Part shown: piece after piece, positions 2,631-60,002 of the stretch
Layout: every line of letters begins with the position of its first letter
Position numbering within the stretch: position 1 is the first letter of the stretch
Assembly: GCA_002782865.1 (NCBI GenBank)
Contig: PFJC01000022.1
Span: 1-60,029 of the forward strand
Origin: Candidatus Uhrbacteria bacterium CG_4_10_14_3_um_filter_41_21
GTDB lineage: Bacteria > Patescibacteriota > Patescibacteriia > UBA9934
DNA: 60,029 bases
Direction of reading: 5' to 3'
Position numbers and translations under genes: made by a program
The notes under the pieces: generated by a model
Seen by the model: only the letters and a program-made list of their open reading frames with translations
Told to the model about the DNA's origin: nothing
Database searches by the model: none

Positions 2631-2654
2631 AAACCCATTTTCCCTTAAATCAAG

Positions 2655-2688
2655 ATAAAAAGCAAAAAACCCCGCTTTCGCGGGGTCT
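2655..2688 (-). terminator. Intrinsic terminator after the DUF91 nuclease gene
   Basis: Reverse strand has an ACCCCGC-GAAA-GCGGGGT hairpin (2669-2686) followed by a T-rich run. Confidence 0.8.
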
Positions 2689-2693
2689 TATTA

Positions 2694-3056: not shown

Positions 3057-3535
3057 ATGAATTCTTCTAAATACTTTTCCAAAGCAAATTCCATCTCTTC
3101 ATCTGGTTGCTCACCGGCTACAAATACATCTGGTTCAGACCCTAGAATAAGATTAAAATCTCGCTCTGATATTCGTCCAGATGATCCCATGGATGGCCTC
3201 CAACCTAAACTCTTAAAGTCATGTCGGCTTTTTGGACTTGGAAATACGACTACGTCATCTAAGTCAATCCGTAAAATATCTTCTCCATGAAACATCTTCT
3301 GTGAATCTTCGCTATCATCTTTATAGGCCCCACTCGCAAGTTTAGCGCTCCCAACGAAAACTTGATTATTCTGGCCGGTTAAATAAAAAATAACTCTATC
3401 TCCTGGCTGAATTGCTTTTCTATTTGCTGCCCTTGGTCCAAAACCCCAGACGTTTTTATCTACAACAAGATTTTTAAACCACTCATAGGCAGTCATGTCG
3501 TTAGCGTCAGATACCTGGAATACGTAATAATTCAT
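3044..3535 (-). CDS. PUA-like (EVE/ASCH-type) domain protein (probable N-terminal half of a split gene)
   Basis: 163 aa. The pattern YYVFQV..W.FGPRAANRKAIQPGDRVIFYLTG..QVFVGSAKL resembles EVE/ASCH PUA-like folds. The C-terminal EKYLEEFIWQN resembles the linker that precedes DUF91 nuclease cores. Confidence 0.45.
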   Translation of the reverse strand: MNYYVFQVSDANDMTAYEWFKNLVVDKNVWGFGPRAANRKAIQPGDRVIFYLTGQNNQVFVGSAKLASGAYKDDSEDSQKMFHGEDILRIDLDDVVVFPSPKSRHDFKSLGWRPSMGSSGRISERDFNLILGSEPDVFVAGEQPDEEMEFALEKYLEEFIWQN

Positions 3536-3547
3536 ATTTATTTTTCT

Positions 3548-3907
3548 TTAATCTTGATGCTCAGTCCATTTTTTAGCATTCCCATTTGCTTTATCAACCG
3601 GATACTTCTCACCAGTTTTTATAATCTTCTTCTCAAACGCCTGCTTGATATCAATCCCCAAATCGTGCGCCATTAAAAGCACCCAATATAAAACATCGGC
3701 TAACTCATCGCTGACGCCCTCAAACCCCTTTTCACTAGCCAAATAATTTTTAATATCATCCTCACTTTTCCATTGAAAATGTTCCATCACCTCTGCTGCC
3801 TCAAGGGCGAGTGACAAAGCCATATCTTTTGGATTATGGAACTGCTTCCAGTTCCGCTCATCGCGGAAAGCAACAATTTTGTCTGTAAGTTCTTTTAAAT
3901 CTGACAT
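3548..3907 (-). CDS. MazG-like nucleoside triphosphate pyrophosphohydrolase
   Basis: Contains LALEAAEVMEHFQW and ELADVLYWVLLMAHDLGID (MazG EExxE/D helices). Start moved to the ATG at 3907 (MSDLKEL); the tracked N-terminal extension lies inside a repeated leader. Confidence 0.8.
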   Translation of the reverse strand: MSDLKELTDKIVAFRDERNWKQFHNPKDMALSLALEAAEVMEHFQWKSEDDIKNYLASEKGFEGVSDELADVLYWVLLMAHDLGIDIKQAFEKKIIKTGEKYPVDKANGNAKKWTEHQD

Positions 3908-3966
3908 ATAAACCCATTCTGCTCGATTGGGGCGCAAAAAGCAAAAATCCCCATTTCTGGGGATCT
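3905..3966 (-). repeat. 62-nt repeat, copy 1 (terminator hairpin + leader + ATG of the MazG gene)
   Basis: 58/62 identical to 4893-4954 by manual alignment. A partial third copy (hairpin only) lies near 5553-5581. Confidence 0.85.
3936..3964 (-). terminator. Intrinsic terminator (part of the 62-nt repeat)
   Basis: Reverse strand has an ATCCCCA-GAAA-TGGGGAT hairpin followed by TTTTTGCTTTTT. Confidence 0.75.
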
Positions 3967-3987
3967 ATATAAAAACATCGCCTGGCA

Positions 3988-4016
3988 TTGACATTCTGCT
4001 GATTTTGACTTATATA
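3988..4016 (+). promoter_or_regulatory. Sigma70-type promoter of GC-rich cassette 1
   Basis: TTGACA (3988-3993), 17-nt spacer, TATATA (4011-4016). Confidence 0.6.
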
Positions 4017-4049
4017 TTAGGTACACACCCAGCTAGGAGTCACAGAGCA

Positions 4050-4349
4050 ATGACCATCTTCCCCGTCCTTCTCGGCCTCTTCGTGGCCGCCCTAGTGCTC
4101 GGCACCGTCGTCTGCTTCGTCAAGTCCGTCCTCGGCGATGGAGATCAGTGGACGTTCGCCGGCTTCCTCGGCACCGCCGCCACTCTCCACATCACCGTCT
4201 TCGCGATGGTCGGGTTCGCCCAGCGCTTCCCGGACCACCAGTGGACGTGGATCACGCTCGCGCTCATCGTGACGGCCTTCGACGTCGCCGTCGCCATCGC
4301 TGGCAACAACCACCGGCGCCAGCTCGTGCCCGCCATCGCCCAGCGCTGA
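4050..4349 (+). CDS. GC-rich cassette 1: small 3-TM membrane protein (99 aa), unknown function
   Basis: An AGGAG lies 10 nt upstream of the ATG at 4050. A sampled line is about 65% GC. Three hydrophobic segments (IFPVLLGLFVAALVLGTVVCF, FAGFLGTAATLHITVFAMVGF, WITLALIVTAFDVAVAIAG). Overlapping antisense and out-of-frame ORFs are treated as shadows. Confidence 0.6.
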   Translation: MTIFPVLLGLFVAALVLGTVVCFVKSVLGDGDQWTFAGFLGTAATLHITVFAMVGFAQRFPDHQWTWITLALIVTAFDVAVAIAGNNHRRQLVPAIAQR

Positions 4350-4370
4350 GCCTCGACTCAGCTCCCCTTC

Positions 4371-4404
4371 GACCCCAGCCTCTCGGCCGGGGTCGTCGTT
4401 TTTT
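4371..4404 (+). terminator. GC-rich intrinsic terminator of cassette 1
   Basis: GACCCCAGCC-TCTC-GGCCGGGGTC hairpin followed by GTCGTTTTTT. Confidence 0.75.
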
Positions 4405-4407
4405 ATA

Positions 4408-4436
4408 AAAGAAAAATCCCGCTTTCGCGGGATTCT
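4408..4436 (-). terminator. Intrinsic terminator after the HIT gene
   Basis: Reverse strand has an AATCCCGC-GAAA-GCGGGATT hairpin followed by TTTTC. Confidence 0.75.
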
Positions 4437-4439
4437 TAT

Positions 4440-4895
4440 TTATACTTCTTTAATTTTCTCCGCTACCAGCGCCAGCTCACTATCATCGGCTCGATCTGCA
4501 TCATGCGAGCTAATGTAGCCAGGATACTCTTTGTAAAAATCATTAATAACAGAAGATCGCTTTTGCCAATCACCAACTGTTCCGTGCAGTGGGAAAAGTT
4601 TTAAATGTAAGTGGTCAACCCCAAATCCTTCAGCCACCAAGCCAGTGCGTCCAACATCTTCAAAGGCTATATCAATCTTTTTCGCCACTTCTTTGGCTGC
4701 TAAAACTAAACCAGTAATTACATTTTCAGGAGCATCGAATAGATAACTGCCATGGTGCTCTTTTGGAATCAGAACCGTTACCCCTTTTGTATTTGGAAAA
4801 ATACTCAAAAATGCTAAATGATTTTCATCTTCCCAAACTTTATGGCCTGGAGAACTCCCATTTACGATTTGGCAAAAAATACAGTTATCATTCAT
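4440..4895 (-). CDS. HIT-family (histidine triad) nucleotide hydrolase/transferase
   Basis: Contains CIFCQIV near the N-terminus and VDHLHLKLFP (HxHxHxx triad). Start set at the ATG at 4895 (MNDNCIF). Confidence 0.85.
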   Translation of the reverse strand: MNDNCIFCQIVNGSSPGHKVWEDENHLAFLSIFPNTKGVTVLIPKEHHGSYLFDAPENVITGLVLAAKEVAKKIDIAFEDVGRTGLVAEGFGVDHLHLKLFPLHGTVGDWQKRSSVINDFYKEYPGYISSHDADRADDSELALVAEKIKEV

Positions 4896-4954
4896 ATAAA
4901 CCCATTCTGCCCGATTAAGGCGCAAAAAGCAAAAATCCTCATTTCTGGGGATCT
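4893..4954 (-). repeat. 62-nt repeat, copy 2 (terminator hairpin + leader + ATG of the HIT gene)
   Basis: 58/62 identical to 3905-3966. This explains the identical spurious N-terminal extensions MR.NRAEWVYM in two ORF-track entries. Confidence 0.85.
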
Positions 4955-5585: not shown

Positions 5586-6662
5586 TTACTTTTTAGCCTC
5601 GTTTTTTGAACGAGTAACCATAAACTTTACCCCTTCAGACATATTCTCCTCTTTAATTTCAATACTCGGATGCGCATTTTGAAATACTCTATATATCTCA
5701 TCTACAAAAGCCTGTCCGACAACTGGCACTTTGTCAAAATTAAGAAGAATAATTTTAAATTTTTCTAGACCGGAAAGAATACGCCTGGCTTGAGATCGAG
5801 AAATATGGATTCCGCCGGCGGTGTATAGATTAACGCGGATTTCAGTCTTGTCAAAACCGTAATCGCTACCTCCTTTTGAATCAGTGAATTTCTTAAAAAT
5901 ATCATTCAGATGTAAATCTGATTTTATATCTATTTCAAAAATAACTGCTGTTCCCCGCTTGATAGTAGATATTCGCCTCACCTCAACATCATCTTTTGAA
6001 ACTATTAACTGATACCCAAAACTATTTAAATTAAATTTATCTCCCGATCTTGATGTAAAGAAAATTCCCTCACCAGAATGAGACTTAGGCATGGTCGTTG
6101 TTTTGCCTTTTAAAAGATCTTGGATAGCCTGCATCTCTGAATCAAGTTTCCTATTTTTCATGATGTTTCGAAAAACACCAACTCCGGAATCTTCTACGAT
6201 AAATGAAAACTGATTATTGCGAAGTGCAATCTCGACACCAATTATTTTTGATTGCGAATGTTCAATGGCATTATTAAACATTTCCGAAAATGCAAAATTA
6301 AAAATACTATGAATATTTTCCGGAAGATCCATTAAAGCCGGGAAACTCTTTTCAATATCCATCAAAACCATGTGCTCCTCAAGTGATTCATTTCTATATT
6401 TTTTACTAAAAACATTTGGGATGATATCCGGATGTTTTTGAGCGTAGAGCGAAGAAACATAAAAGGCCGATCTGGTACTCCCAATTTTAAGAATTTTTTT
6501 ATCAGCGATTAGGCCTGATAGTAATTGATTAAGATATTGACGAGAAACACCAAACTCAACAGAAAGCTCCTTGGCGGTGAACTTCTCTTTTTTATTGGCT
6601 ATTTCTAATATTTTATTTTTACTCAACATAAGCAAGTACATTGTAAACCATTCTATATTCAA
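5586..6662 (-). CDS. HTH + histidine-kinase-like ATPase (HATPase_c) + STAS-like DUF4325 protein
   Basis: Contains an HTH (ELSVEFGVSRQYLNQLLSGL), an N-box (FNNAIEHS), a G1 box (DSGVGVF) and a G2-like box (GEGIFFTS). The C-terminal FDKVPVVGQAFVDEIYRVF resembles DUF4325. The start may be an internal Met. Confidence 0.6.
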   Translation of the reverse strand: MNIEWFTMYLLMLSKNKILEIANKKEKFTAKELSVEFGVSRQYLNQLLSGLIADKKILKIGSTRSAFYVSSLYAQKHPDIIPNVFSKKYRNESLEEHMVLMDIEKSFPALMDLPENIHSIFNFAFSEMFNNAIEHSQSKIIGVEIALRNNQFSFIVEDSGVGVFRNIMKNRKLDSEMQAIQDLLKGKTTTMPKSHSGEGIFFTSRSGDKFNLNSFGYQLIVSKDDVEVRRISTIKRGTAVIFEIDIKSDLHLNDIFKKFTDSKGGSDYGFDKTEIRVNLYTAGGIHISRSQARRILSGLEKFKIILLNFDKVPVVGQAFVDEIYRVFQNAHPSIEIKEENMSEGVKFMVTRSKNEAKK

Positions 6663-12016: not shown

Positions 12017-12096
12017 AATTTAAACATATATTACATGTTACACATTTAATTTATGTTTCGTCTGCTACCCTGTTACGCATCAAATACTACGATAAA

Positions 12097-12125
12097 TTGA
12101 CAAAAACCGCAATTTTTTGTAGGAT
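12097..12125 (+). promoter_or_regulatory. Sigma70-type promoter of GC-rich cassette 2
   Basis: TTGACA (12097-12102), 17-nt spacer, TAGGAT (12120-12125). Confidence 0.55.
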
Positions 12126-12219
12126 TCTGTGTCGTTCATTTAAGAAAGCTTGGAGGTTGTTGTCGGTGCTGGACCGTGTCCAACATCTAACATTCAACTT
12201 CCAAAGCCCTGGAGACACC

Positions 12220-13338
12220 ATGTTCTGCTTCATTCTCTTCGCTATCGCCATGTTCTTCAGTTCGGCAAGCGCCAAGACCCACGCGGTCGTGGTTGGCGTG
12301 GACGCGCCGGCGCTCGAAGGAATATCGGCCGTGGCGAGCGCTGCCTACAACTGCGTGCGCGTATCGGAGATCATCAACAACTCGGACAGCGAGGCCCGCG
12401 CCCTCTGCGCGGAAAATGCCAGTCGCAATCAAGTGATGGCCGCTTTTGCCGACGCTGCCAGCCAGGCAAGCGACGGCGAAACTGTATTTTTCGCCTGGTT
12501 CGGTCACGGGTTCGTGATCAAGGAATCGGGAGAAAAGGGCTTTGTGCCTGTGGACTGGGATCCCGAAGATGACACCAGCGCCATTTGGCTGGAGCGGGAC
12601 ATCAAGTCGGTCATGCGCCTGCGACCGACCGTGACGTTCAGGATTATCCTGGACGCCAATCACCGCGCCAACTATCGATGGGAAAAGGCCAGTAAAGAAC
12701 TCGGCTATGTGACCCTGCATGGGCCAACGGCTGAGGACTTCGCCGACCTGGACAATGTGCTGGTGATCTCGGCCGGTAGCGGCGACAATTTCCTGAATCC
12801 GAGCGACTCAAAGTTCGGAACCGCTGTCGTCGCGGCACTCGGTGCGCGCGAAAACGGCGTGCTCACGATCGCCGTTTTCGCGACCAAGCTCGCGAGCGTC
12901 TACCGAGAGGCAGGTGGCAACCCGACAGGTGTAGAAAGCTGGATGGAAAACTCCTCGGCTCTCTTCACCTGGCCGGCCGAGTTTGCGCCCCCGCCCAAGC
13001 AGGCACTCAAGTGGCGCCGGCCGGTAATGTATGCCGGCGCTGGCATGGCCTTGGCTGGATTCGGCGTGTCTAGCGTTGAGTGGCTTCGAACGAAGTCGCT
13101 CCAGCAGCGCCTGATCGACTACGACTACGAGTCAATCAACGGGGAGGACGGCTACTACGACCTCCTCGACCGGCGCGACAACGCCTTTCGGGGGAGTCAA
13201 ATCGGGGCAATCGCAGGCGCAGTCGGCGCAGTCGCCGGTGGAGCCGCCTTCGCGCTGGAATGGCGCGCCGACCATTTCACTAGCCTCGCGCCTATGGCTG
13301 GCGAAGCCAACGGCCTTCTCTTCCTTGGACGGTTCTGA
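12220..13338 (+). CDS. GC-rich cassette 2: secreted, membrane-anchored caspase-like (peptidase C14-like) protein, catalytic Cys apparently replaced
   Basis: A GGAG lies 5 nt before the ATG at 12220. Signal peptide MFCFILFAIAMFFSSASA. Contains HAVVVGVD and the His motif VFFAWFGHGF, but ILDANH where caspase-fold enzymes have D-x-C-H. Gly/Ala-rich C-terminal TM segments. Strong GC3. Confidence 0.55.
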   Translation: MFCFILFAIAMFFSSASAKTHAVVVGVDAPALEGISAVASAAYNCVRVSEIINNSDSEARALCAENASRNQVMAAFADAASQASDGETVFFAWFGHGFVIKESGEKGFVPVDWDPEDDTSAIWLERDIKSVMRLRPTVTFRIILDANHRANYRWEKASKELGYVTLHGPTAEDFADLDNVLVISAGSGDNFLNPSDSKFGTAVVAALGARENGVLTIAVFATKLASVYREAGGNPTGVESWMENSSALFTWPAEFAPPPKQALKWRRPVMYAGAGMALAGFGVSSVEWLRTKSLQQRLIDYDYESINGEDGYYDLLDRRDNAFRGSQIGAIAGAVGAVAGGAAFALEWRADHFTSLAPMAGEANGLLFLGRF

Positions 13339-13355
13339 ACCGTCTGCGTGCCAAA

Positions 13356-13391
13356 GCGGCGCAACCTCTCGGTTGCGCCGCATCTTTTTTT
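13356..13391 (+). terminator. GC-rich intrinsic terminator of cassette 2
   Basis: GCGGCGCAACC-TCTC-GGTTGCGCCGC hairpin followed by ATCTTTTTTT. Confidence 0.85.
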
Positions 13392-13420
13392 CAGAATATG
13401 TCTCGTAAAACATTTAATTC

Positions 13421-26445: not shown

Positions 26446-26475
26446 AAAAAAGAACCCCGAAAGGGGTCTTTTTTG
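26444..26475. terminator. Bidirectional terminator between rmuC and the TrmB-like gene
   Basis: A-run, CCCC-GAAA-GGGG hairpin, T-run. A nearly identical hairpin lies at 28389-28418. Confidence 0.8.
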
Positions 26476-26476
26476 T

Positions 26477-27292
26477 TTACTTTGTTGGTAATTCGCCCCA
26501 AAGTCTTTCAAATATTGTTCTGTGAAAATCAGCTAACTCTTTTGATTCAATAATAACCGCCATTTTTTCTTTCCAAGAAGCAATCAATATTTTATTGTTA
26601 TAAATATTTACTTCAGGTGTAAAGGAATCACTTTGAGGTAAAAACCTGGTATTTCTCATTTCGTTGCTATCTTTTTGAGCTCGCTCGTAAGATGATTTAT
26701 TGCGCGGCAGAATTGCTCTAATAAATACTCCGGCGTCCGATCGACGCTGATAGTACTTAGGAAAGAAATTCGGAAGTGCCTCGTGCATTGTTTCTACGTT
26801 TGCATAGGCGAGAATTGGATCTTTTGATGTCAGCGTATCTTCATACGCTTCGCGCATACCTTTCTCGTCTTCATAAAATTGAACCTTTGGCCGAGTACTA
26901 TCCTTATATTGTTTTGAGATAAGCTCTGGCAAAAGTTTTTCAACTTCAGCTTTCTTCTTTGTTAATCTTTCCGTAGTGTTTTCGATTTCTCGGTCAATAT
27001 AACTTAAGAGTCGTTTTGGCTCTAGCGCTTCAAAATATGTTTGATTACCTCTTATATTTTTGCTTATCAAGCCTTTTTTCATTAAAGAGCTAAGAATATC
27101 GTACATAGTTGTACGGTTAAGGTCTGCCTTTTTAGCAATTTCTCCGGCTCTTGCCTCACCAAGCTCGAGCAAACCAAGATAGGTTGCAATTTCTTTTTCT
27201 GTAAAATTCAGATCTCGAAGTGTTGTTTCAAGCATATTTTGTGGAAATAATAACGACACTTTATTTATATAATATTCGCTAAATTTTGTCAA
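26477..27292 (-). CDS. TrmB-family transcriptional regulator
   Basis: Winged HTH (YLGLLELGEARAGEIAKKADLNRTTMYDILSSLMKKGLI) plus a TrmB-like C-terminal domain. The real start may be the Met at about 27235. Confidence 0.75.
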   Translation of the reverse strand: MTKFSEYYINKVSLLFPQNMLETTLRDLNFTEKEIATYLGLLELGEARAGEIAKKADLNRTTMYDILSSLMKKGLISKNIRGNQTYFEALEPKRLLSYIDREIENTTERLTKKKAEVEKLLPELISKQYKDSTRPKVQFYEDEKGMREAYEDTLTSKDPILAYANVETMHEALPNFFPKYYQRRSDAGVFIRAILPRNKSSYERAQKDSNEMRNTRFLPQSDSFTPEVNIYNNKILIASWKEKMAVIIESKELADFHRTIFERLWGELPTK

Positions 27293-27383
27293 TACTAAAT
27301 TTCTATTTATAGTCTACTCTCGACAAAAGTAGAATTTATTGATATTTTGATCGGTCGAAATCAATCGACAAGTGGAGGCAGTT

Positions 27384-27794
27384 ATGAACGTTACATGTGA
27401 GGTCTCTCTCCTGAATGTGGCGCCCTGTACGAAATTCAGACAAGAATACAACGCATGTGTGTTCCGTGTCCTCAAGGTGATGGCCAAGGCGTGGTTTTAT
27501 GCCACGCCGGGTGTCCGCGCCAAAAGCGCGGATGTCCAGGTCAAGGAAGGTCAGAACTTCCGGGCCGTCATCAGCGTTCAGTGTTGCAGGCAGAACGACG
27601 GCATCGTCGACGAGCCGGTGGTGTTTACCGGAAAAACTGCCGATGAAGTTCATCGGCAGATGGATCTTCTCACCGAGGTGGAAGGCACCCCGGTAGAGCA
27701 TGGCCTGAAGATCGATCCCTTCGAGCTTCACCGCGAAGCTCGAAGTCGAGTCTACTCGACCTGGATCGGCGTGGTTTTTGTCCACGCCATCTAG
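27384..27794 (+). CDS. GC-rich cassette 3a: small soluble Cys-containing protein (136 aa), unknown function
   Basis: A GGAGG lies 5 nt upstream of the ATG at 27384. GC3-enriched in this frame. A possible TCGACA-N17-TATTTT promoter lies at 27321-27349. Confidence 0.5.
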   Translation: MNVTCEVSLLNVAPCTKFRQEYNACVFRVLKVMAKAWFYATPGVRAKSADVQVKEGQNFRAVISVQCCRQNDGIVDEPVVFTGKTADEVHRQMDLLTEVEGTPVEHGLKIDPFELHREARSRVYSTWIGVVFVHAI

Positions 27795-28002
27795 AGCCCC
27801 ACTCGCGGCGTGCGCCCTTGTGTGCACGCCGACCGATCAATGTGTTTTTCAAAAGAAGAACTTATTGACTGGGTCTAGCTCATTTTTCCGCGGCCTCCAA
27901 AAAAAAGTGCCGCTCAGGCGCTTTAGCAGATAAAATTAGATAGGCCCGACTTTTTAAGCAGTTTTTACTGGTGACATGCCTTTTCAAAAAAAGAGGTAAA
28001 AG

Positions 28003-28344
28003 ATGGAATTACGGGAATTCAACGCCTTGCAAGAGGCGCTGCGAGAAGTAGAAATACTTGTCGCAAGGTGGGCCTGGCACAGAATCAGGCCAAAAATTCC
28101 GTGGACAGAAAGTGGCCGTTATGAAAACGGCGAAGAAGCAGCCGGCGTCTTCTGGGATTTCCAGAAAGATGTTCGAGCAGTAAGCGCGGACGTCCCGCTA
28201 TGGGCGTTTCATACCAGCAACGGCCCGGGTAGGCGGCCGATCAGCGAGCTCGAACACACGCTCGCTGTCACCATTCTTCAGGGCAATGACGAAAATGACG
28301 AAAAGGAAGTAATGAAAATCCTCGATGAGCGTTTTCCGCTCTGA
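28003..28344 (+). CDS. GC-rich cassette 3b: small Trp-rich soluble protein (113 aa), unknown function
   Basis: A GAGG lies 6 nt upstream of the ATG. Intermediate GC. Followed by hairpins and the shared bidirectional terminator. Confidence 0.5.
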   Translation: MELREFNALQEALREVEILVARWAWHRIRPKIPWTESGRYENGEEAAGVFWDFQKDVRAVSADVPLWAFHTSNGPGRRPISELEHTLAVTILQGNDENDEKEVMKILDERFPL

Positions 28345-28388
28345 ACTTCATATCCCCGACTGCACATGCGGCCGGGGTTTACTGCAGA

Positions 28389-28418
28389 CAAAAAAGAGCC
28401 CCGAAAGGGGTCTTTTTT
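28389..28418. terminator. Bidirectional terminator (cassette 3b / rpsT)
   Basis: AAAAAAGAG-CCCC-GAAA-GGGG-TCTTTTTT. Confidence 0.8.
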
Positions 28419-28420
28419 GC

Positions 28421-28690
28421 TTACTTTGCAACTGTCTTGGCCAAAGCCGCTGACATTCTTGAGATTATACGAGCTGATTTGTTTTGCTTGTAAATATTTT
28501 TTACAACTGCTTTGTCCAACTTCTGCTGAAGTTCTGGAATTATTGCCTTTGCTTCGTCAATATTCTTGGCTTCAAGCAATTTTCGGAAATGTCGGCGCAT
28601 TGAGTCAATCTCGGCGCGAACAATCTTATTTGCTTCAAATCGTTTTATACTCTGTCGCAAAGCCTTTTTTGCATGTGCTAATTGTGGCAT
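28421..28690 (-). CDS. rpsT: 30S ribosomal protein S20
   Basis: MPQLAHAKKALRQSIKR.. is typical of S20. Confidence 0.9.
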   Translation of the reverse strand: MPQLAHAKKALRQSIKRFEANKIVRAEIDSMRRHFRKLLEAKNIDEAKAIIPELQQKLDKAVVKNIYKQNKSARIISRMSAALAKTVAK

Positions 28691-30467: not shown

Positions 30468-31121
30468 ATGTTCGAGCACGCTTCCCCTGCTTTCAATCTT
30501 GTTCGCAGGCACTTCGTTGAGCTCGACCAATTCGGACTCAACGGCATCACTGTCACCTTTGTGTTCACGACCATCTTCGGCCTGCTAGGGTCTTGGGGTC
30601 TGTACAAACAGATCCAGATGGTCAAAAAGCGCGGCGGACAATCCGTGTCTGTGATCTGGAGCATCAGCTTCATGTTCATGTTCGCAAGCTACTACCTGTA
30701 CGGACTCAGCGCCGGCAAACTGGCCATTTTGATGCAGTCATTTCTACGCGTCCCATTCTACCTGATTTTGCTTCCGTTGCTCTACCGCGCAAACGCGGGA
30801 TTCAGCAAAAAGGAATGGACGCTCGTGATCGCCTTGACCACATCGCTCATCGTGTCCTATTGGGACATCGGCAAAGTGTTCCTGGGTCTATCGTGGCTTG
30901 GCGCGATCATCGCTGCCGATCAGCCCTACAAGATCTGGAAAAACCGAACCCGTGGTAGCGTCTCGATAGAACTCATGGCCTCCTTCGAGGCGAGCATCAT
31001 CTTCTGGCTTGCATATGCCTTCGTGACACACGACGGCTATATCAAAGCCTGGGCAGTGGTATACTTCACCGTCTACACGACGACAATTATCTTCTACTAC
31101 CTGCCGAGACACCGCACCTAG
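30468..31121 (+). CDS. GC-rich cassette 4: 7-TM protein with two PQ-loop/SWEET-like repeats (tentative)
   Basis: A GGAG lies 5 nt before the ATG. About seven hydrophobic helices. Two loop motifs follow TM1 and TM5 (YKQIQMVKKRGGQSVSVIW and QPYKIWKNRTRGSVSIELM), like PQ-loop repeats. Confidence 0.5.
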   Translation: MFEHASPAFNLVRRHFVELDQFGLNGITVTFVFTTIFGLLGSWGLYKQIQMVKKRGGQSVSVIWSISFMFMFASYYLYGLSAGKLAILMQSFLRVPFYLILLPLLYRANAGFSKKEWTLVIALTTSLIVSYWDIGKVFLGLSWLGAIIAADQPYKIWKNRTRGSVSIELMASFEASIIFWLAYAFVTHDGYIKAWAVVYFTVYTTTIIFYYLPRHRT

Positions 31122-34314: not shown

Positions 34315-34390
34315 GGCGAGTATCGTCCAACGGCTAGGACAGCGGTTTGTGGTACCGTTAATGAGGGTTCGATTCCCTCTACTCGCCCCA
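34315..34390 (+). tRNA. tRNA-His (anticodon GTG) with encoded G-1 and CCA
   Basis: An extra 5' G precedes the GCGAGTA/TACTCGC acceptor. Loop TT-GTG-GT, T-arm GAGGG-TTCGATT-CCCTC. Confidence 0.9.
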
Positions 34391-34392
34391 GA

Positions 34393-34425
34393 AAAACACC
34401 AACGAATACGCTGGTGTTTTTCGTT
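34393..34425 (+). terminator. Intrinsic terminator after tRNA-His
   Basis: AACACCA..TGGTGTT hairpin followed by TTTCGTTT. Confidence 0.7.
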
Positions 34426-34433
34426 TGTACGAA

Positions 34434-34450
34434 GAACCCTCATTAACGGT
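34434..34450. repeat. 17-nt inverted copy of the tRNA-His variable/T-arm segment
   Basis: GAACCCTCATTAACGGT is the exact reverse complement of tRNA-His positions 34354-34370. Confidence 0.9.
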
Positions 34451-34463
34451 TGAATTGAGATCA

Positions 34464-34490
34464 GATGTGGTCACTAAGCGACCACATTTT
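34464..34490 (+). repeat. 27-bp direct repeat, left copy, flanking GC-rich cassette 5
   Basis: GATGTGGTCACTAAGCGACCACATTTT is identical to 35301-35327. It is itself a hairpin (ATGTGGTC/GACCACAT) plus a T-run. Confidence 0.95.
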
Positions 34491-34511
34491 CTTTTCAAAA
34501 ATAAAATCGGC

Positions 34512-34552
34512 TATAAAAACAACCCGCCGTCGCTCTCGGAGCAATGGCGGGT
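34512..34552 (-). terminator. GC-rich terminator of cassette 5
   Basis: Reverse strand has ACCCGCC..GGCGGGT followed by TGTTTTTA. Confidence 0.6.
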
Positions 34553-34600
34553 GGGGGTGCACCCACGTCAGCAGGAGAACTCACGCAGGTGAGCTATATC

Positions 34601-34861
34601 CTAGCTGTCACGGGTGTGCGAGCTAGACTTCTGTCGCCATTCCTCGTACCTGATCTGCTTGATGGCCTTGTACAATATCAGGCCGAAGGGGGCCACAATG
34701 CTACCGAAGGTCAGCAGGGCGAGGAACCAGTCTGGCGATCCCTGCTGGTACCAATCGACTCCGAAGACCAGGAGCATCAGAACGCCCATTAGCCAAATGA
34801 CGAGACACGCAAGCGCGTCGCCCTGGCCGAAGATGTGAGGCTCGGGAAGTCGAGGCGCCAT
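34601..34861 (-). CDS. GC-rich cassette 5, gene B: small 2-TM membrane protein (86 aa)
   Basis: The ATG shares one nucleotide with the upstream stop (TAATG). A GAGGTG lies 5 nt upstream. TM segments LACLVIWLMGVLMLLVFGV and FLALLTFGSIVAPFGLILY. Confidence 0.55.
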   Translation of the reverse strand: MAPRLPEPHIFGQGDALACLVIWLMGVLMLLVFGVDWYQQGSPDWFLALLTFGSIVAPFGLILYKAIKQIRYEEWRQKSSSHTRDS

Positions 34862-35199
34862 TACTTCACCTCTTGCTGAACCGTCGCCACCTTCTTGTGC
34901 AGGTGAGCAAAGATCTTGTAGAAGAGCCAGCAGATCAGGGCTATCGGGACGGCGAGCAGGAGGGTAGCCATCAGCTCGAAGACACTCGTGCACAGCAGCG
35001 GCGACATCGCGAAGAAGATGAGGCAAAAGACGAAGAGGGCCTTGTTGAAGACCATCAGCGACATGACCTTCTCGGACTGCTCCGGGTATTCACACTGCAG
35101 GTAGTAGCGCATCACGTTCCAGTTGATCAGGTTGTAGATTGTCCCGATGAACAGAGCGGTGGTGCCGATGTAGAGCGTGACGGGCAAGGGCAGGTTCAT
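34861..35199 (-). CDS. GC-rich cassette 5, gene A: small 3-TM membrane protein (112 aa)
   Basis: A GGAGG lies 5 nt upstream of the ATG at 35199 (MNLPLPV). TM segments include LYIGTTALFIGTIY, ALFVFCLIFFAMSPLL and LLLAVPIALICWLFY. Confidence 0.55.
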   Translation of the reverse strand: MNLPLPVTLYIGTTALFIGTIYNLINWNVMRYYLQCEYPEQSEKVMSLMVFNKALFVFCLIFFAMSPLLCTSVFELMATLLLAVPIALICWLFYKIFAHLHKKVATVQQEVK

Positions 35200-35264
35200 G
35201 GATTCCTCCAGAGGTCGGCTGATCCCAGCCGTGGGGTTGCCGATCCGAGTGGAAACGACGCTCA

Positions 35265-35293
35265 AACATAACAGAAATAGGATAATCCGTCAA
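35265..35293 (-). promoter_or_regulatory. Sigma70-type promoter of cassette 5
   Basis: Reverse strand has TTGACG, a 17-nt spacer and TATGTT. Confidence 0.55.
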
Positions 35294-35300
35294 TCGAGCT

Positions 35301-35342
35301 GATGTGGTCACTAAGCGACCACATTTTAAGCGACCACATTTT
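35301..35342 (+). repeat. 27-bp direct repeat, right copy, plus a 15-nt tandem partial copy
   Basis: 35301-35327 is identical to 34464-34490. AAGCGACCACATTTT is then repeated at 35328-35342. Confidence 0.95.
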
Positions 35343-35366
35343 TCGATTTCGTGTATAATTATTTTT

Positions 35367-36047
35367 ATGAATATCCTCTTCGGCACCTCAAAAAAACAAG
35401 ATAAACAAATGCGCCTGCTAGCTGGCGAGGAAGCAATGAAAAATCGAGCTGTCTTTTTTTCAGCACTCAAAATCGATCCGGCCAACATCACCTCCGGCTT
35501 GCTGGCTCACGGAAAAACCGTCGTACTGGTCAATAATAAAAACCTTGGCCAAATAATTTCCGGCACAGACGCGCTGGTCACAAATCTAACTAATGCTTGC
35601 CTGACCATCACAATTGCCGACTGCGTTCCAATCTTCTTTATTGATAAAAACCACGGCGCTATCGGTCTGGCTCACGCCGGTTGGAGGGGAGTGCTTCAAA
35701 ATATCGTCAGCGAAGTTACACAAACCATGGCGCGTGAGTATTTATCAAATCCAGCCGAGATTGAGGTTTACATCGGCCCACATTTGATGAGCTGCCACTT
35801 TGAGGTTAAGGCTGATGTTGAAAGTAAATTTCATGAATTTGCAGATGCCATTATTCATCACCAAGAAAAAACTTTTATTGATCTTCAAAGCATTATTGTT
35901 AAACAACTAATTTCTGCCGGACTCCAAAACAAAAACATACACAGAACTGTCGAGTGTACATTTTGTAATCAAGATTATTTTTCTTACCGACGCGACAAAC
36001 CGGAGGATGTTGAATCTCAAGTCGCTTATATTATCAAGCGCGACTGA
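35367..36047 (+). CDS. pgeF: PgeF/YfiH (DUF152) purine nucleoside phosphorylase / laccase-domain protein
   Basis: Contains HGAIGLAHAGWRG, IGPHLMSCHFEV and CTFCNQDYFSYRRD. A TATAAT lies 7 nt upstream of the ATG (leaderless-like). Confidence 0.85.
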   Translation: MNILFGTSKKQDKQMRLLAGEEAMKNRAVFFSALKIDPANITSGLLAHGKTVVLVNNKNLGQIISGTDALVTNLTNACLTITIADCVPIFFIDKNHGAIGLAHAGWRGVLQNIVSEVTQTMAREYLSNPAEIEVYIGPHLMSCHFEVKADVESKFHEFADAIIHHQEKTFIDLQSIIVKQLISAGLQNKNIHRTVECTFCNQDYFSYRRDKPEDVESQVAYIIKRD

Positions 36048-36048
36048 T
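36031..36048 (+). repeat. 18-bp direct repeat, left copy (contains the pgeF stop)
   Basis: TTATCAAGCGCGACTGAT is identical to 36868-36885. Confidence 0.95.
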
Positions 36049-36117
36049 TTACAATCAGGAAATTTTCTCAAATTGCACAAAATACGCACTTTTATGCGTA
36101 TTTTTGGCCTAAATGCC

Positions 36118-36146
36118 TTGACAAAAGGCTGTTTTTGTGATACATT
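36118..36146 (+). promoter_or_regulatory. Sigma70-type promoter of GC-rich cassette 6
   Basis: TTGACA, 17-nt spacer, TACATT. Confidence 0.55.
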
Positions 36147-36201
36147 ACTCGGTCGAGTGGTAGTATTCCACTGCCCTCACAACACGGCCAAGGAGGCCAA
36201 C

Positions 36202-36786
36202 ATGCGCAACCTGATCCAGATCGCTCTCGCCACCCTGCTCGCCGCCTGCGCCAACCAGCAGAGTGGCCCCTCGAGCCTGGGCGAGCCCGCCCACACGGGC
36301 GGCACGAAGATCGCTGGCCCTGGCGACAGCGCGGTCGAGTTCATCACCTGGCACTTCCCCCAGGACAGCACCACCAGCAACATCACCTTCACCATGCTGG
36401 TGCCCGAGTGCGACTCCATCGGTTCGTGCCGTTGGATCTCGGACATTTACGGCTACACCCAGCACGACGTCCGGACGGCCCCGGTGCGGACGGTGGTGCA
36501 GGACGCCATCGACATCTGCTGGCTGACCGACGAGAACGACGAGGTGGTGTACAACACCAACTCGCTACCCGACGGCGACGGCAACGTGTCCTTCCGCATC
36601 CTCAAGTCCACCGGCTCGGTGACCCTCGTCTGCGACATCAGCAGAGATGCCGAGGCCGTGACGATCGGTACCAATCTCCAAGATCTCACCAACTACAAGT
36701 ACGTCGGCGAAGACTTCGAGTGGTACGGCACCTACCTCAACCTGAACTCCTGGACCAAGCCCGCCTCGAGGGTCACGATCCGGTAG
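36202..36786 (+). CDS. GC-rich cassette 6: lipoprotein (194 aa), unknown function
   Basis: An AAGGAGG lies 5 nt upstream of the ATG at 36202. Signal peptide with lipobox MRNLIQIALATLLAAC. Strong GC3. The other long ORFs here are shadow frames. Confidence 0.6.
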   Translation: MRNLIQIALATLLAACANQQSGPSSLGEPAHTGGTKIAGPGDSAVEFITWHFPQDSTTSNITFTMLVPECDSIGSCRWISDIYGYTQHDVRTAPVRTVVQDAIDICWLTDENDEVVYNTNSLPDGDGNVSFRILKSTGSVTLVCDISRDAEAVTIGTNLQDLTNYKYVGEDFEWYGTYLNLNSWTKPASRVTIR

Positions 36787-36812
36787 ATCCGGTAGTCACG
36801 CACCCCCTCGAC

Positions 36813-36849
36813 GACGCATCCGTCGCCGTTCGGGTGCGTCATTTTTTTT
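36813..36849 (+). terminator. GC-rich intrinsic terminator of cassette 6
   Basis: GACGCATCCG..CGGGTGCGTC hairpin followed by ATTTTTTTT. Confidence 0.85.
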
Positions 36850-36867
36850 AATTAAACTTTTACCAAC

Positions 36868-36885
36868 TTATCAAGCGCGACTGAT
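36868..36885 (+). repeat. 18-bp direct repeat, right copy (contains the MFS gene stop on the reverse strand)
   Basis: Identical to 36031-36048. Its reverse complement encodes the ..ISRA-stop end of the MFS gene. Confidence 0.95.
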
Positions 36886-38057: not shown

Positions 38058-38978
38058 TTACGCTTTACCGTGATACTTTTTATGAACCTTTCGGAGCTGT
38101 CTATCGGTCACATGCGTGTAAACCTGCGTGGTAGTAATCGATTCATGACCAAGCATGGACTGAACTGAACGGATGTCAGCGCCATTGCGTAACAGATCAG
38201 TGGCAAATGTATGACGCAAAGTGTGTGGAGTTATTTTTTTGGTGATACCCGCGGCTGAAGCATACTTTTCCATAATTCTTTGCACTGATCGTGGTGAAAC
38301 CGGCATCGATCCTCTGGAAGTCTTGGCGCGATCGTGACCGACAAACAAGTATGGAGATGTGTCGTGCCTGGCATCTAAATACTCTTTGATGGCTTTTCTG
38401 GAATCATCTGACAAAAAAACCACTCGGTGTTTGCTCCCTTTGCCTTTAACTGTAAACTCGTCCCGCCGAAGATTAATATTGTCGATTTTTAAGTTAGCAA
38501 GCTCGGAAACACGCAGTCCTGTTGAAAAAAGAGTACGCACAATCGCTCTATCCCTCTTGCCAATAATGCCCGGCGCGTCTTGAAGAGCCCCAAATATCCG
38601 CCGTAGTTCATCTTCTTCTAAAAACTCAACCTTACGCGTTCCTTGTTTAGCAAGTTCAATCTTATCCGCTGTCATTGATTTAACATCACGCCTAGCTAAA
38701 TATCGCAAAAACGCTCGAAGGGCAATTAAGTGATAATTCTGCGTACTCTTTTTTAAATTCACTTCGTCTCGACCCTCAATTTCACGATTTAAATACAATC
38801 TATATTTCCGCACCATCTCGGGCTCTATTTTAGATGGGTGTGGCCAGAGTGCCCAGTCGGCAAATCGGCGCAAATAAAAATCATAATTGCGGACAGTTTT
38901 GCTCGATCGTCCACGTTCAACTTCCAAATATTCCAAAAACTCTTTGATGTACTTCTCTAGCATTGATTTTGTGCTCAT
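38058..38978 (-). CDS. xerC: Tyrosine site-specific recombinase, XerC/XerD-like
   Basis: Contains TGLRVSEL, HTLRHTFATDLL and GHESITTTQVYTHV (R..HxxR..Y catalytic set). Start set at MSTKS. It is the only recombinase seen in the window. Confidence 0.85.
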   Translation of the reverse strand: MSTKSMLEKYIKEFLEYLEVERGRSSKTVRNYDFYLRRFADWALWPHPSKIEPEMVRKYRLYLNREIEGRDEVNLKKSTQNYHLIALRAFLRYLARRDVKSMTADKIELAKQGTRKVEFLEEDELRRIFGALQDAPGIIGKRDRAIVRTLFSTGLRVSELANLKIDNINLRRDEFTVKGKGSKHRVVFLSDDSRKAIKEYLDARHDTSPYLFVGHDRAKTSRGSMPVSPRSVQRIMEKYASAAGITKKITPHTLRHTFATDLLRNGADIRSVQSMLGHESITTTQVYTHVTDRQLRKVHKKYHGKA

Positions 38979-39136
38979 AGTAAGAGTACTATACGACACT
39001 AATAAAATGATTGCCATAATATTGACAATTATCAAGCATTAGGCTAATATACGCTCATAATTAATCAATTGCTTTTAGCCATGGTTTAGCGCTCGAGCAG
39101 CGTTTTACTAAGACTAAAAGACGAAATTAACAAAAT

Positions 39137-50530: not shown

Positions 50531-50568
50531 TAAAAACAAAACAGCGCACCCCGGTGGAACGCGCTGTT
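50531..50568 (-). terminator. Intrinsic terminator of GC-rich cassette 7
   Basis: Reverse strand has AACAGCGC..GCGCTGTT followed by TTGTTTTTA, about 170 nt after the stop codon. Confidence 0.7.
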
Positions 50569-50740
50569 CCTAGGTGCGCTGTACGCGCTTAGGGCGTTGG
50601 CGTCGTGCCCCGCCAGTCGTTTTCTGGCTCATCCGACGCCCCAGCGGGAATCGGGAGCTGGGGTGACAATTCGTCTATGTAGACGATGGACTTACGGACT
50701 TGATCCTCGAAGCCCGCAGGAATGAATATCGAGCTACGAG

Positions 50741-50992
50741 TCATATCGCGTAGACCATCAGCCCGTCATCTTCCTCGGCACAGAAGCCGGGAATGGCGCC
50801 GATTAGGCACGGACGCACTGACCTATTCCCCGCATACAGTTCATTGATGCCGCCCTCGCAGAACATCCTGTCCTGCGACCAGACCTCGGTCTTTACACCA
50901 GAACAGACAGACATCATCTCTGCCCGTTGTTCCTGCATGTAACGACACCCTGCCAGCAGGCCGAGCACGAGCATCATCAGAAAACGTTTCAT
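50741..50992 (-). CDS. GC-rich cassette 7: small Cys-rich lipoprotein (83 aa)
   Basis: A GAGGG lies 5 nt upstream of the ATG. Lipobox signal peptide MKRFLMMLVLGLLAGC. Five further Cys residues. Confidence 0.55.
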   Translation of the reverse strand: MKRFLMMLVLGLLAGCRYMQEQRAEMMSVCSGVKTEVWSQDRMFCEGGINELYAGNRSVRPCLIGAIPGFCAEEDDGLMVYAI

Positions 50993-51044
50993 TTTTTCCC
51001 TCGATCTGGCAAACCGGCCAGTGCGGATGTCGTTGTGACAACAA

Positions 51045-51073
51045 TTTATATAATTATTTTACTGTTTTGTCAA
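51045..51073 (-). promoter_or_regulatory. Sigma70-type promoter of cassette 7
   Basis: Reverse strand has TTGACA, a 17-nt spacer and TATAAA. Confidence 0.55.
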
Positions 51074-51126
51074 TCCTAAACCTCTATTCCCTCTATCCTG
51101 CTATTATCTATTACCTCTACTAATCG

Positions 51127-58844: not shown

Positions 58845-58913
58845 TGATTGATGCACAGAACCCGCCCCAGCATAGCCCGGGGCGGGTTTAGATTTGCGTA
58901 GATGACGAAGAGT

Positions 58914-59906
58914 CTACGTGCTCTTGCGGCCGGCAGCCCTTTCCTTGCACTTGCGGCAGGGCTTCTGGGTCGCGGCGCACTTCTTGCACCGCCCGGATGG
59001 GATCTTCAGCCCGGCCGGAGCCTTCGGTCGGGGCTCGCGGAACTTCTTGCCGACGCACCCGCGCTTGCGCTCACCGACGCCGTTCGCGATGAGCACGAAG
59101 GACATCTGGGCGCGGACGGGGTCGTAGGGCCTGCCGGCACCGTGTCCGACGACCTTCGTGGTGGGCATAGGGAGGATGTTGTCGAGGCGACCACTGCCGA
59201 TCGGCTGGCCGAGGAGCCGGCTCATCTCCTCGGCACCACTGCCGGGGAGAAGTTCGATCGTGCCGTCCTGCAGGAGCCGGACGGCACACGGCGCGCAGAT
59301 GAGCACCAGCGAGCGCTTGTTCACTCGCACGGCGCGCATTTCCTCGATGACCGCTTCCCCATTCTGGGAACTGCACAGGGAGGGACAGACCCGGTGCACC
59401 GTGCACTCGGTCAGGATGGTGCCGTGGTTCGGCTTCTTGCGAGAGAATTCCTCGGGCAGCACCCGCCCGCGCTGGACGATGCGGTCGATGATCGTCGTGG
59501 GCGTCGGCATCATCTGGACCGGCAGAAAGGCCGGCTCGAGCCCGCCCTCAACCAGGATCATGCCCGGGTTTTCGCTTCGGGGGTTGATGCCGGGCATCTT
59601 CTTTTCAGCGCAGGCATCGCAGACCCGCGCCTTTGGGTTGGGGCTGAAAAGCCCGTCTTTGATCCTCCCGCCGGAGAGGTACTCAACCTTCGCGCCCAGC
59701 GCGAAGGGGTTGATTCGACCGCCCAGGTGGTCAGGAACGAGCGCCTTGCAGAATGCGCAAGGCTCGGCACTCTTGCTCCAGGCGCGCCCGGTCTTGCACT
59801 CCCGGCCGTGCTTGATCCGCTCGCCCTCGTGGAGGGCGTTTTGGCAAGGCGAGCCGCTCTCGCCATTGCAGATACAGTAATCGGTTGTCTTCTCGGTGTT
59901 TCCCAC
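58914..59906 (-). CDS. GC-rich cassette 8: Cys-rich (multi-CxxC) basic protein, 330 aa, unknown function
   Basis: GTG start with a GAGGTG 4 nt upstream. The reverse frame has pronounced G/C third positions. Contains CICN..C, CAFC, CDAC, CAPC and a CKKC..CRKC tail. The equally long forward ORF 58902-59984 is an Ala/Arg/Leu/Gly-rich shadow. Confidence 0.6.
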   Translation of the reverse strand: MGNTEKTTDYCICNGESGSPCQNALHEGERIKHGRECKTGRAWSKSAEPCAFCKALVPDHLGGRINPFALGAKVEYLSGGRIKDGLFSPNPKARVCDACAEKKMPGINPRSENPGMILVEGGLEPAFLPVQMMPTPTTIIDRIVQRGRVLPEEFSRKKPNHGTILTECTVHRVCPSLCSSQNGEAVIEEMRAVRVNKRSLVLICAPCAVRLLQDGTIELLPGSGAEEMSRLLGQPIGSGRLDNILPMPTTKVVGHGAGRPYDPVRAQMSFVLIANGVGERKRGCVGKKFREPRPKAPAGLKIPSGRCKKCAATQKPCRKCKERAAGRKST

Positions 59907-59973
59907 GGGGCACCTCGGATATACTATTTATTGTCCGTATTTGCTCTCAAGCCGATGGGAGCGGGACGAGCCA

Positions 59974-60002
59974 AATTATTATAAAATCAGCATTTTGTCA
60001 AG
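59974..60002 (-). promoter_or_regulatory. Sigma70-type promoter of cassette 8
   Basis: Reverse strand has TTGACA, a 17-nt spacer and ATAATT. Confidence 0.5.

Follow-up and report, generated by a model that had tools for sequence, protein, structure and literature searches.

How does a compact bacterial chromosome come to hold a GC-rich block of 810 bp, encoding two small membrane proteins, exactly between two copies of one 27-bp hairpin? The question is raised by a contig of Candidatus Uhrbacteria bacterium CG_4_10_14_3_um_filter_41_21 (PFJC01000022.1, 60,029 nt, referred to as a whole as the window), which belongs to the Patescibacteria or Candidate Phyla Radiation (CPR). The block lies between the genes for tRNA-His and PgeF, and its two genes are here called A and B. 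The analysis indicated that the block is a true insertion with a 27-bp target duplication and a third partial copy of 15 nt. It is probably a horizontally acquired, transcriptionally autonomous cassette resembling the morons of phages, which would have entered the chromosome by non-homologous insertion with break-and-repair duplication of its target and which carries envelope proteins as cargo; this reading is held with moderate confidence. The site is laid out as follows.

34316..34390, plus strand: tRNA-His (GTG), upstream neighbour of the insertion site, called by ARAGORN; an identical tRNA is found in the relative L013.
34391..34422, plus strand: first hairpin (GAAAAACACC..GGTGTTTTTC), directly 3' of tRNA-His, recognised by its fold; host DNA outside the repeat, kept in L013.
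34464..34490, plus strand: left copy of the 27-bp duplicated target hairpin, stem ATGTGGTC/GACCACAT, loop ACTAAGC, T-run; single in L013, with its core at 800-822.
About 34515..34551, minus strand: intrinsic terminator of the cassette, a CCCGCC..GGCGGG stem followed on the minus strand by TTGTTTTT, seen in the sequence; fold z = -3.75.
34601..34861, minus strand: gene B, 86 aa, two predicted transmembrane (TM) helices; its ATG overlaps the stop codon of A (TAATG).
34861..35199, minus strand: gene A, an open reading frame (ORF) of 112 aa with three long helices, from a family of four clusters.
35205..35209, minus strand: Shine-Dalgarno sequence GGAGG, 5 nt upstream of the ATG of A, seen in the sequence.
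35265..35293, minus strand: promoter of sigma-70 type, TTGACG-N17-TATGTT, TG-extended, beginning 7 nt inside the right repeat boundary.
35301..35327, plus strand: right copy of the 27-bp duplicated target hairpin.
35328..35342, plus strand: third partial tandem copy AAGCGACCACATTTT, beginning within the hairpin loop; with the next T it supplies the sequence at the -35 spacing relative to the candidate pgeF -10 element.
35352-35359, plus strand: candidate pgeF -10 element TGTATAAT.
35367..36047, plus strand: pgeF (Cu-oxidase_4/YfiH family), downstream neighbour; Pfam 1.7e-53, homologues named PgeF.

The 27-mer GATGTGGTCACTAAGCGACCACATTTT occurs exactly twice in the window when up to three mismatches are allowed, where the chance expectation from 100 shuffles is none, and among 30 loci compared the hairpin was confined to the tRNA-His/pgeF locus. 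The repeat folds into a stem of 8-10 bp with a loop of 7 nt, followed by a T-run. The start-to-start period of the two copies is 837 bp, the repeats extend imperfectly to 32 nt, and the GC content changes abruptly at their boundaries. The left copy begins 73 nt beyond the end of tRNA-His and has no overlap with it. According to the predicted signals the cassette is transcribed away from pgeF and is ended by its own terminator before the tRNA is reached. This layout is in accordance with the first-pass annotation, made by a model from the sequence alone, which had described the perfect repeats, the partial copy, the terminator-like nature of the repeat and the promoter, GGAGG, coupled genes and GC-rich terminator between the copies, all of which are present. 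That annotation had also asked whether the repeat might be a common dispersed terminator; within the window and the loci compared it is not dispersed.

An abrupt change in GC at repeat boundaries would also be expected if the reads of a GC-rich organism had been joined chimerically into the CPR contig at a repeated hairpin, that is, from an artefact of assembly or binning. A protein identical to A is encoded by 19 contigs of ENA, JGI and Logan, assembled with different programs. The 10 contigs retrieved showed 99.9-100% identity to the window and carried both repeats wherever the contig extends that far. A scan of metagenome contigs with a 42-nt tRNA-His pattern found only the same strain and gave one further contig, and a scan of genome contigs with PgeF gave only an unrelated Lachnospiraceae match. 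Identical junctions across independent assemblies and many samples exclude an assembly chimera. The promoter is moreover host-like and the duplication leaves the neighbouring host genes intact, so that the probability left to an artefact is practically negligible.

The empty form of the site, for which the first-pass annotation had proposed a search, was found in L013, whose PgeF is 76% identical. This relative has the same tRNA-Arg, tRNA-His and spacer, then one hairpin and pgeF, with nothing between. Its junction reads ...GAGATCA, the 27-bp hairpin and TCGATTTCG, while the occupied junction in the window reads ...GAGATCA, the 27-bp hairpin, 810 bp, the 27-bp hairpin, the 15-nt copy and TCGATTTCG. 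The single hairpin in L013 indicates that the hairpin is older host sequence, which was doubled on insertion of the cassette. Among named relatives, the best matches to PgeF (75%) and to protein B (67%) come from metagenome-assembled genomes (MAGs) of Candidatus Uhrbacteria. In a second relative, the Uhrbacteria MAG L012, a different GC-rich cargo stands on both sides of pgeF, and only the AAGCGACCACATTTT half of the hairpin is retained beside pgeF, next to the relative's own, different GC-rich island. L012 also contains a 66-nt direct repeat (3732-3797 / 5969-6034) which brackets pgeF and a GC-rich island. The pgeF gene itself is a mosaic when the window is aligned with L013 and L012. The first ~365 alignment columns, covering the upstream spacer and the 5' part, are ~95% identical to L013, columns 365-625 differ strongly from both relatives, and the 3' end is conserved again, a pattern in the alignment which suggests recombination within the gene.

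The composition of the insert is foreign to its surroundings. Its GC content is 55.7% compared with 42.5% for the window, and the GC content at third codon positions (GC3) reaches 0.88 in A and 0.77 in B, where 15 host genes have values of 0.26-0.47. The genes dnaA, dnaN, polA, holA, rnhB, ssb, rpsF, efp and ychF mark the window as chromosomal. No phage genes were seen near the cassette and no match was obtained in phage or viral collections; blastn of the cassette against phage and plasmid collections likewise gave no match. Scans of viral contigs with the A profile, the B profile, the lipoprotein of a second cassette and a 372-aa island protein gave nothing, or one unconvincing match of 29%. 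Apart from the GC-rich islands, the window has an AT-rich cluster (846-3535 and 5586-6662) with an N6/N4 DNA methylase, a NucS/PD-(D/E)XK-like nuclease and an EVE-domain protein, and near it a protein that combines HATPase and DUF4325 (STAS-like) domains; these resemble genes of restriction-modification or defence.

The 810 bp are accounted for by promoter, A, B and terminator, the other reading frames being overlapping ORFs with no sign of being genes. No integrase or transposase was found in or beside the cassette, and no transposase or phage integrase among the window ORFs scanned; the lack of an own recombinase agrees with the earlier description. Terminal inverted repeats are absent, as the cassette ends CTTTTCAAAAAT... 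and ...CAATCGAGCT are not inverted repeats of each other. The only nearby recombinase is a tyrosine recombinase of Xer type at 38058-39035, 2.7 kb away, which scored 137.6 bits against a cut-off of 265 for integron integrase (TIGR02249) and which passes the XerA-type model. An integrase-family gene stands near pgeF in L012.

The insert is one of several in the window. At least seven GC3-rich islands share one architecture, with a near-consensus TTGAC(A/G)-N17-TAnnnT promoter, a ribosome-binding site, one or two ORFs and a GC-rich terminator. None has a Pfam match, and the products are mostly membrane proteins, lipoproteins or secreted proteins. The islands and the sister cassette nearest to the site are located as follows.

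About 3966-4410; 12090-13395; 27300-28400; 34491-35300; 36049-36867; about 50540-51075; 58600 to the window end: GC3-rich islands.
36031..36885, plus strand: sister cassette, with an 18-bp perfect repeat at 36031-36048 / 36868-36885.
36118-36146: promoter of the sister cassette; 36202-36786: its lipoprotein ORF (GC3 0.92); 36813-36850: its terminator.

Four inserts are bounded by long direct repeats, of 18, 27, about 40 and about 61 bp. In the sister cassette, the 18-bp repeat is made up of the overlapping 3' ends (convergent stop codons) of pgeF and a major facilitator superfamily (MFS) gene, and the 18-mer is single in L013 (one mismatch), where pgeF and the convergent gene overlap. The first-pass annotation had remarked on a pgeF/MFS cassette of similar size; it is real, and its repeats at 36031 and 36868 give the same period of 837 bp. 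The imperfect repeat of about 40 nt at about 26453/28397 (region 26453-28436) consists of the RmuC terminator hairpin and the last rpsT codons. It flanks an insert of 1944 bp with an AT-rich gene for a TrmB-like winged helix-turn-helix protein (26477-27292, minus strand), whose last codon (Lys) and stop come from the duplicated target, and two GC-richer ORFs (27384-27794 and 28003-28344). TrmB-like genes also adjoin GC-rich cassettes in L012 (twice) and in L019/L020. The repeat of about 61 nt (3905-3965 / 4893-4953, ~92% identical) contains a hairpin, a leader and a start codon, lies upstream of two genes which by eye resemble MazG and the HIT family, and brackets a GC-rich cassette (4050-4349, a 99-aa 3-TM protein, GC3 0.92) plus the HIT-like gene. 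For three of the four repeats, the copied stretch includes signals on which both neighbours rely; in the fourth, that of about 61 bp, the repeat carries a leader and start codon which are now used by both flanking genes.

Three of the other GC3-rich cassettes have their own TTGACA-N17 promoter, and no flanking repeats were found at them: 12220-13338, for a 372-aa protein whose N-terminus resembles a signal peptide and which has a faint caspase-like match; 50540-51075 on the minus strand, for a lipoprotein (MKRFLMMLVLGLLAGC...); and 58902-59984, for a 360-aa ORF just downstream of dnaN. When all promoter and terminator modules were compared by blastn-short with the window and the loci, no linker common to the window cassettes was found, and the matches were self matches plus one module of L012. 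This exception is a 66-nt promoter module standing right after pgeF, 91% identical between the lipoprotein cassette of the window and L012 (4592-4657), while the cargo lipoproteins differ. A 217-aa ORF at 30468-31121 (GC3 0.73), between rnhB and polA, has an MtN3/SWEET-type match (PF03083, 25.5 bits) and is probably another foreign cassette.

Site-specific integration has to be weighed at this point as the main rival. A tyrosine recombinase working in trans, such as the nearby Xer-type enzyme, could have integrated a mini-circle of 837 bp, with the hairpin as an att- or dif-like core and the repeats as attL and attR. The repeat does have an arm-spacer-arm geometry, with imperfect inverted arms of 10 bp around a spacer of 7 bp, and its imperfect extension to 32 nt is what att flanks often show. 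Both perfect-repeat cassettes share the 837-bp unit, the 27-bp and 18-bp direct repeats (DR1 and DR2) have AAGC(GC)GAC in common, the third partial copy starts at AAGCGAC, and the site at the pgeF 3' end of L012 holds nearly the same promoter module with different cargo. But the hairpin is already host sequence at the empty site, with no further copy in the window, and the length and sequence of the repeat differ at every insert. Each locus-specific target would have to be present on the circle. The palindrome in the 18-bp repeat is weak, the recombinase scores as a housekeeping Xer and not as an integron integrase, and a homologous A/B cassette, in L015, has no flanking repeat. Integration of such a circle is thus considered unlikely, although it keeps an appreciable chance.

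A further and decidedly doubtful proposal is that of a dedicated, hitherto undescribed acquisition process without a recombinase of the cassette's own. An enzyme of the host, or one provided in trans, would recognise terminator hairpins or palindromes, make cuts flanking them and insert promoter-ORF-terminator cassettes from a shared GC-rich pool, with duplication of the target in the manner of CRISPR spacers; the 837 bp would be the size of a length-defined, possibly circular, intermediate.

The favoured reading, insertion by break and repair, would proceed through the following steps. The cassette would have landed in the 75-nt spacer that separates the tRNA-His terminator region from pgeF, in a non-homologous event, not specific to a recombinase, at a break spanning the local hairpin. 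Repair synthesis, by fill-in or template switching, would have copied the whole 27-bp hairpin to both sides, and one more slippage would have added the 15-nt half copy that starts in the loop. The hairpin would serve both as the terminator-like structure after the tRNA genes and as the -35 region of the pgeF promoter. Since both neighbours need it, they would both stay functional only if the target is duplicated on insertion, and selection would retain only those events in which both neighbours are preserved. In so compact a genome this would account for the great length of the repeats, for its variation and for their agreement with local features. The same logic would fit the sister cassette, where the 18-bp repeat is the overlap of stop codons of convergent genes, and the repeat of about 40 bp, formed by the RmuC terminator and the rpsT end. 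The long locus-specific duplications, the lack of element ends and of a recombinase, and the repeat-free homologous cassette argue against a transposase, an integron, a Cas1-type ruler and a tRNA-directed integrase.

The neighbourhood of a tRNA gene brings in one more explanation, that a larger integrative element (a prophage or genomic island) beside tRNA-His has decayed until one moron and the att repeats remained. The site adjoins a tRNA, the cassette architecture is moron-like, and duplications of tRNA 3' ends with terminators (86 and 50 nt, in L013 and L025) look like att relics in this lineage. Between the perfect repeats, however, there is only a complete promoter-ORFs-terminator unit with its promoter 7 nt from one repeat, and since the repeats are perfect the insertion event should be young. 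The tRNA 3' end is not in the repeat, the sister cassettes are at sites unrelated to tRNAs, and the phage, plasmid and viral-contig searches gave no match, which makes a decayed element improbable. The location near tRNA-His (73 nt), which the first-pass annotation had called classical for integrative elements, is thus confirmed as a position, but the classical character does not hold, the tRNA 3' end being outside the repeat and the sister cassettes being away from tRNAs.

Two observations on the tRNA regions are recorded here. At 34434-34450, 3' of tRNA-His, 17 nt match without a mismatch the reverse complement of positions 34354-34370 within the tRNA-His gene, and this is kept in L013. The duplications in L013 (527-791) and L025 (1973-2209) are exact, run from the T-loop of the tRNA (His and Leu) through the terminator, and flank small inserts of 93 and 137 nt. 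These inserts share an architecture of CGGGTTCGAT, AGAGAG(C/T)GAG, a hairpin, CCGA(G/A)CGAACG and a second hairpin; the hairpin sequences differ and the pairing is kept. Rfam gave only tRNAs for the tRNA-His region and the small tRNA-linked inserts. The inserts may be an undescribed small tRNA-linked element or RNA.

The cargo was analysed from the protein side. The AlphaFold2 model of A showed three long helices (predicted local distance difference test, pLDDT, 70.8; four-sequence alignment). Its family has four clusters, the three others being 50%-identity clusters found among 1.8 billion representatives at 63, 41 and 29% identity, and its motif is RYY..PE. B has two hydrophobic segments and a family of five clusters, the four others at 52-69% identity, with the motif LPEPxxFGQGDALACLxIW...PFGLxxYKA...YE; this family was found when B was searched alone and was missed by a concatenated A+B query. 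The dN/dS ratio was 0.46 for A (against L015) and 0.19-0.37 for B, and both genes are under purifying selection. Both are orphan families of very small size, with members on contigs from metagenomes and MAGs. Pfam, PHROGs, PADLOC and NCBIfam revealed nothing above threshold for A, B and their relatives, a profile search of the PDB gave nothing, and Foldseek of the A model against PDB and BFVD gave no match below E = 0.7. One A homologue (P0122) reached 20.7 bits against the cut-off of 22.9 for MotA_ExbB (PF01618), over 39 residues. Partners of ExbD/MotB type have one TM helix. A proton channel of the MotA/ExbB/TolQ kind was rejected, as A of the window, P0123 and P0124 are without a PF01618 match and B has two TM helices.

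The relatives of A and B occur in varied contexts. In L015, from a genome of 52% GC, A is followed by a 78-aa two-TM protein which overlaps it as in the window, at a different site, and a homologous promoter and 5' untranslated region lie upstream of A; the 78-aa protein is not among the B relatives found by sequence search. A stands alone between its own promoter and terminator in L019-L023. B stands alone with its own promoter and terminator in L028, directly behind a 109-aa 3-TM protein in L025/L027, and behind another 3-TM protein, of 98-99 aa, in L031/L032. The homologous cassettes in L015, L019, L023, L025 and L028 were searched for flanking repeats, and none came to light. Two identities proposed for the partners of B were rejected: hhalign gave a probability of 0.1% for the 109-aa partner in L025 as a distant A homologue, and a SemiSWEET or PQ-loop identity of the 98-99-aa partner had no Pfam support. 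An ISL3-family transposase and an upstream ORF lie between the 99-aa 3-TM gene and the B homologue in L032 (530-1859), two genes that are adjacent in L031. Upstream of the solitary B cassette of L028 (5540-5960) a TTGACA-N17-TGGAAT promoter is followed by ~400 nt of GC-rich DNA and a terminator; the GC-rich stretch has no called gene and many self-complementary stretches, and the region may be a non-coding RNA.

These contexts bear on the suggestion of the first-pass annotation that the pair is a holin-like or toxin/immunity module, in other words a selfish two-gene membrane system of toxin and immunity protein or of holin and antiholin, maintained by addiction or serving lysis. Two small membrane proteins with coupled translation would suit such a module. 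A grossly resembles a class I holin in its three TM helices and basic C-terminus, B has a sub-threshold match to Phage_holin_3_6 (E = 0.0028, 18.1 bits against a cut-off of 28.4), and the homologous cassettes in L015 and L025 adjoin toxin-antitoxin genes. But the weak holin match was not reproduced in other B members, no endolysin is present, and no holin, toxin or defence family was reached at threshold, with nothing in PADLOC or PHROGs. With A alone, B alone and B behind unrelated partners, the two genes are separable modules of a shuffled pool and not an obligate pair, a point to which the B-position protein of L015 adds. This separability weighs against both the toxin/immunity and the holin/antiholin versions, and the suggestion is regarded as very improbable. 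As B follows different 3-TM proteins, the likeliest product appears to be a small hetero-oligomeric membrane complex. With low confidence, and from sequence features, A and B may be accessory inner-membrane (envelope) proteins, B being a small partner subunit for different 3-TM proteins.

Several points weigh against the reading of a moron-like cassette inserted by break and repair. The empty site of L013 could reflect a precise loss of the cassette via the repeats rather than the ancestral state. No donor genome was identified, and no convincing microhomology was seen by eye at the junctions. The 10-7-10 geometry of the hairpin is like the core of a tyrosine-recombinase site, with an Xer-type enzyme 2.7 kb away. 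The two neighbouring cassettes with perfect repeats, 1.5 kb apart, have an identical period of 837 bp although their repeat lengths, cargo and orientation differ; this unexplained coincidence could point to a length-defined process. No homology or structural match supports the proposed function of the proteins, which, like the break-and-repair mechanism and the selection for the duplication, is something we infer; what the data show directly is the insertion, the duplication, the signals of autonomy, the foreign composition, the distribution of the two families and the purifying selection.

The genomes of CPR bacteria are tiny, and these organisms are believed to rely on other cells. Horizontal transfer is known to shape them. 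To our knowledge, the unit of transfer and the mode of insertion in Patescibacteria are poorly described. Genomic islands and transferred genes make up as much as 13% of genome length in aquifer genomes of this group, where such transfer is documented in general terms, and a term search of that paper gave no mention of direct repeats (PMC12455944). The present locus provides an example resolved to the base pair, with an occupied and an empty site. It indicates that the unit of transfer can be a single expression-ready envelope-protein cassette of ~0.8 kb without a mobility gene of its own, and that the compact regulatory or coding overlap at the landing site is copied with it. If this is general, small envelope-protein genes would turn over by a moron-like or PeSL-like process (named after the promoter-early-stem-loop elements of phages), and such events could be catalogued by searching for their signature, long target duplications of variable length. 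The duplications are also a clue to a break-and-repair or integration activity not yet known.

The cassette was compared with known systems. Insertion sequences and miniature inverted-repeat elements differ in having terminal inverted repeats and a fixed length of duplication, where here the duplications are of 18, 27, about 40 and about 61 bp. CRISPR spacer acquisition and casposon integration by Cas1 (PMC5137440 for casposons) are alike in geometry only, a staggered attack on a palindromic target of ~27 bp and fill-in duplicating it; there is no Cas1 or casposase here, there are no terminal inverted repeats, and the duplication length varies, unlike that set by the fixed Cas1 ruler. Genomic islands linked to tRNAs share the tRNA neighbour, the direct repeats and the deviant GC, but here there is no integrase, the insert has only 810 bp, and the repeat lies past the tRNA, whose 3' end is not reconstituted. 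Integron cassettes and clusters of attC sites lacking integron integrases (CALINs) are similarly small units of one or two genes at a recombination hot spot, with a nearby tyrosine recombinase and a hairpin at the boundary. Such cassettes are usually promoterless, each with an attC site at its end; those of the window each have a promoter and terminator and lie dispersed along the chromosome, a blastn-short comparison of modules revealed no attC-like element common to them, and the recombinase at 38058-39035 fails the integron-integrase model. Integrative mobile elements exploiting Xer (IMEX) and the plasmid dif (pdif) modules of Acinetobacter are recombinase-less modules whose sites, of ~28 bp, consist of inverted arms around a short spacer and which are mobilised by the host Xer. 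Insertion of the mini-circle considered above would resemble that of such modules, or of PeSL mini-circles. The likeness lies in a small module without its own recombinase and possibly in the 10-7-10 geometry of the hairpin; the differences are that only one of the four duplications has the arm-spacer geometry, that the 18-bp sister repeat is without it, and that the site is not repeated elsewhere.

Two phage systems come closest. The cargo of morons is often small membrane proteins. The cassettes of PeSL and ORFan genes, with mini-circles, were described from T4-type phages (Arbiol et al. 2010, PMC2839356), and their authors stated that such plasticity was not known in cellular organisms. The present cassette shares with them a stem-loop terminator beside a strong sigma-70 promoter, an orphan gene, transcriptional insulation, the lack of an identified recombinase, and the insertion, deletion and replacement of cargo between relatives, including one promoter module with different cargo (window and L012). 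PeSL is a dispersed, conserved repeat family that provides homology, while here the hairpin is unique to its locus, there is no common linker and the genome is cellular. In the moron-accretion idea of Hendrix and co-workers, as it is summarised in PMC2839356, one or two genes with their own promoter and terminator are added by illegitimate recombination. The long target duplications seen here, of 18 to about 61 bp, are not part of the moron description given there; further, the present cassette resides in a cellular chromosome and not in a phage or prophage, and no phage relative of its cargo was found. As in that account, the present cassette has one or two genes with their own promoter and terminator, stands between genes that are adjacent in relatives, deviates in composition, and has neither a conserved flanking sequence nor a dedicated recombinase. 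It functionally matches the definition of a phage moron in all respects save its location in a cellular chromosome.

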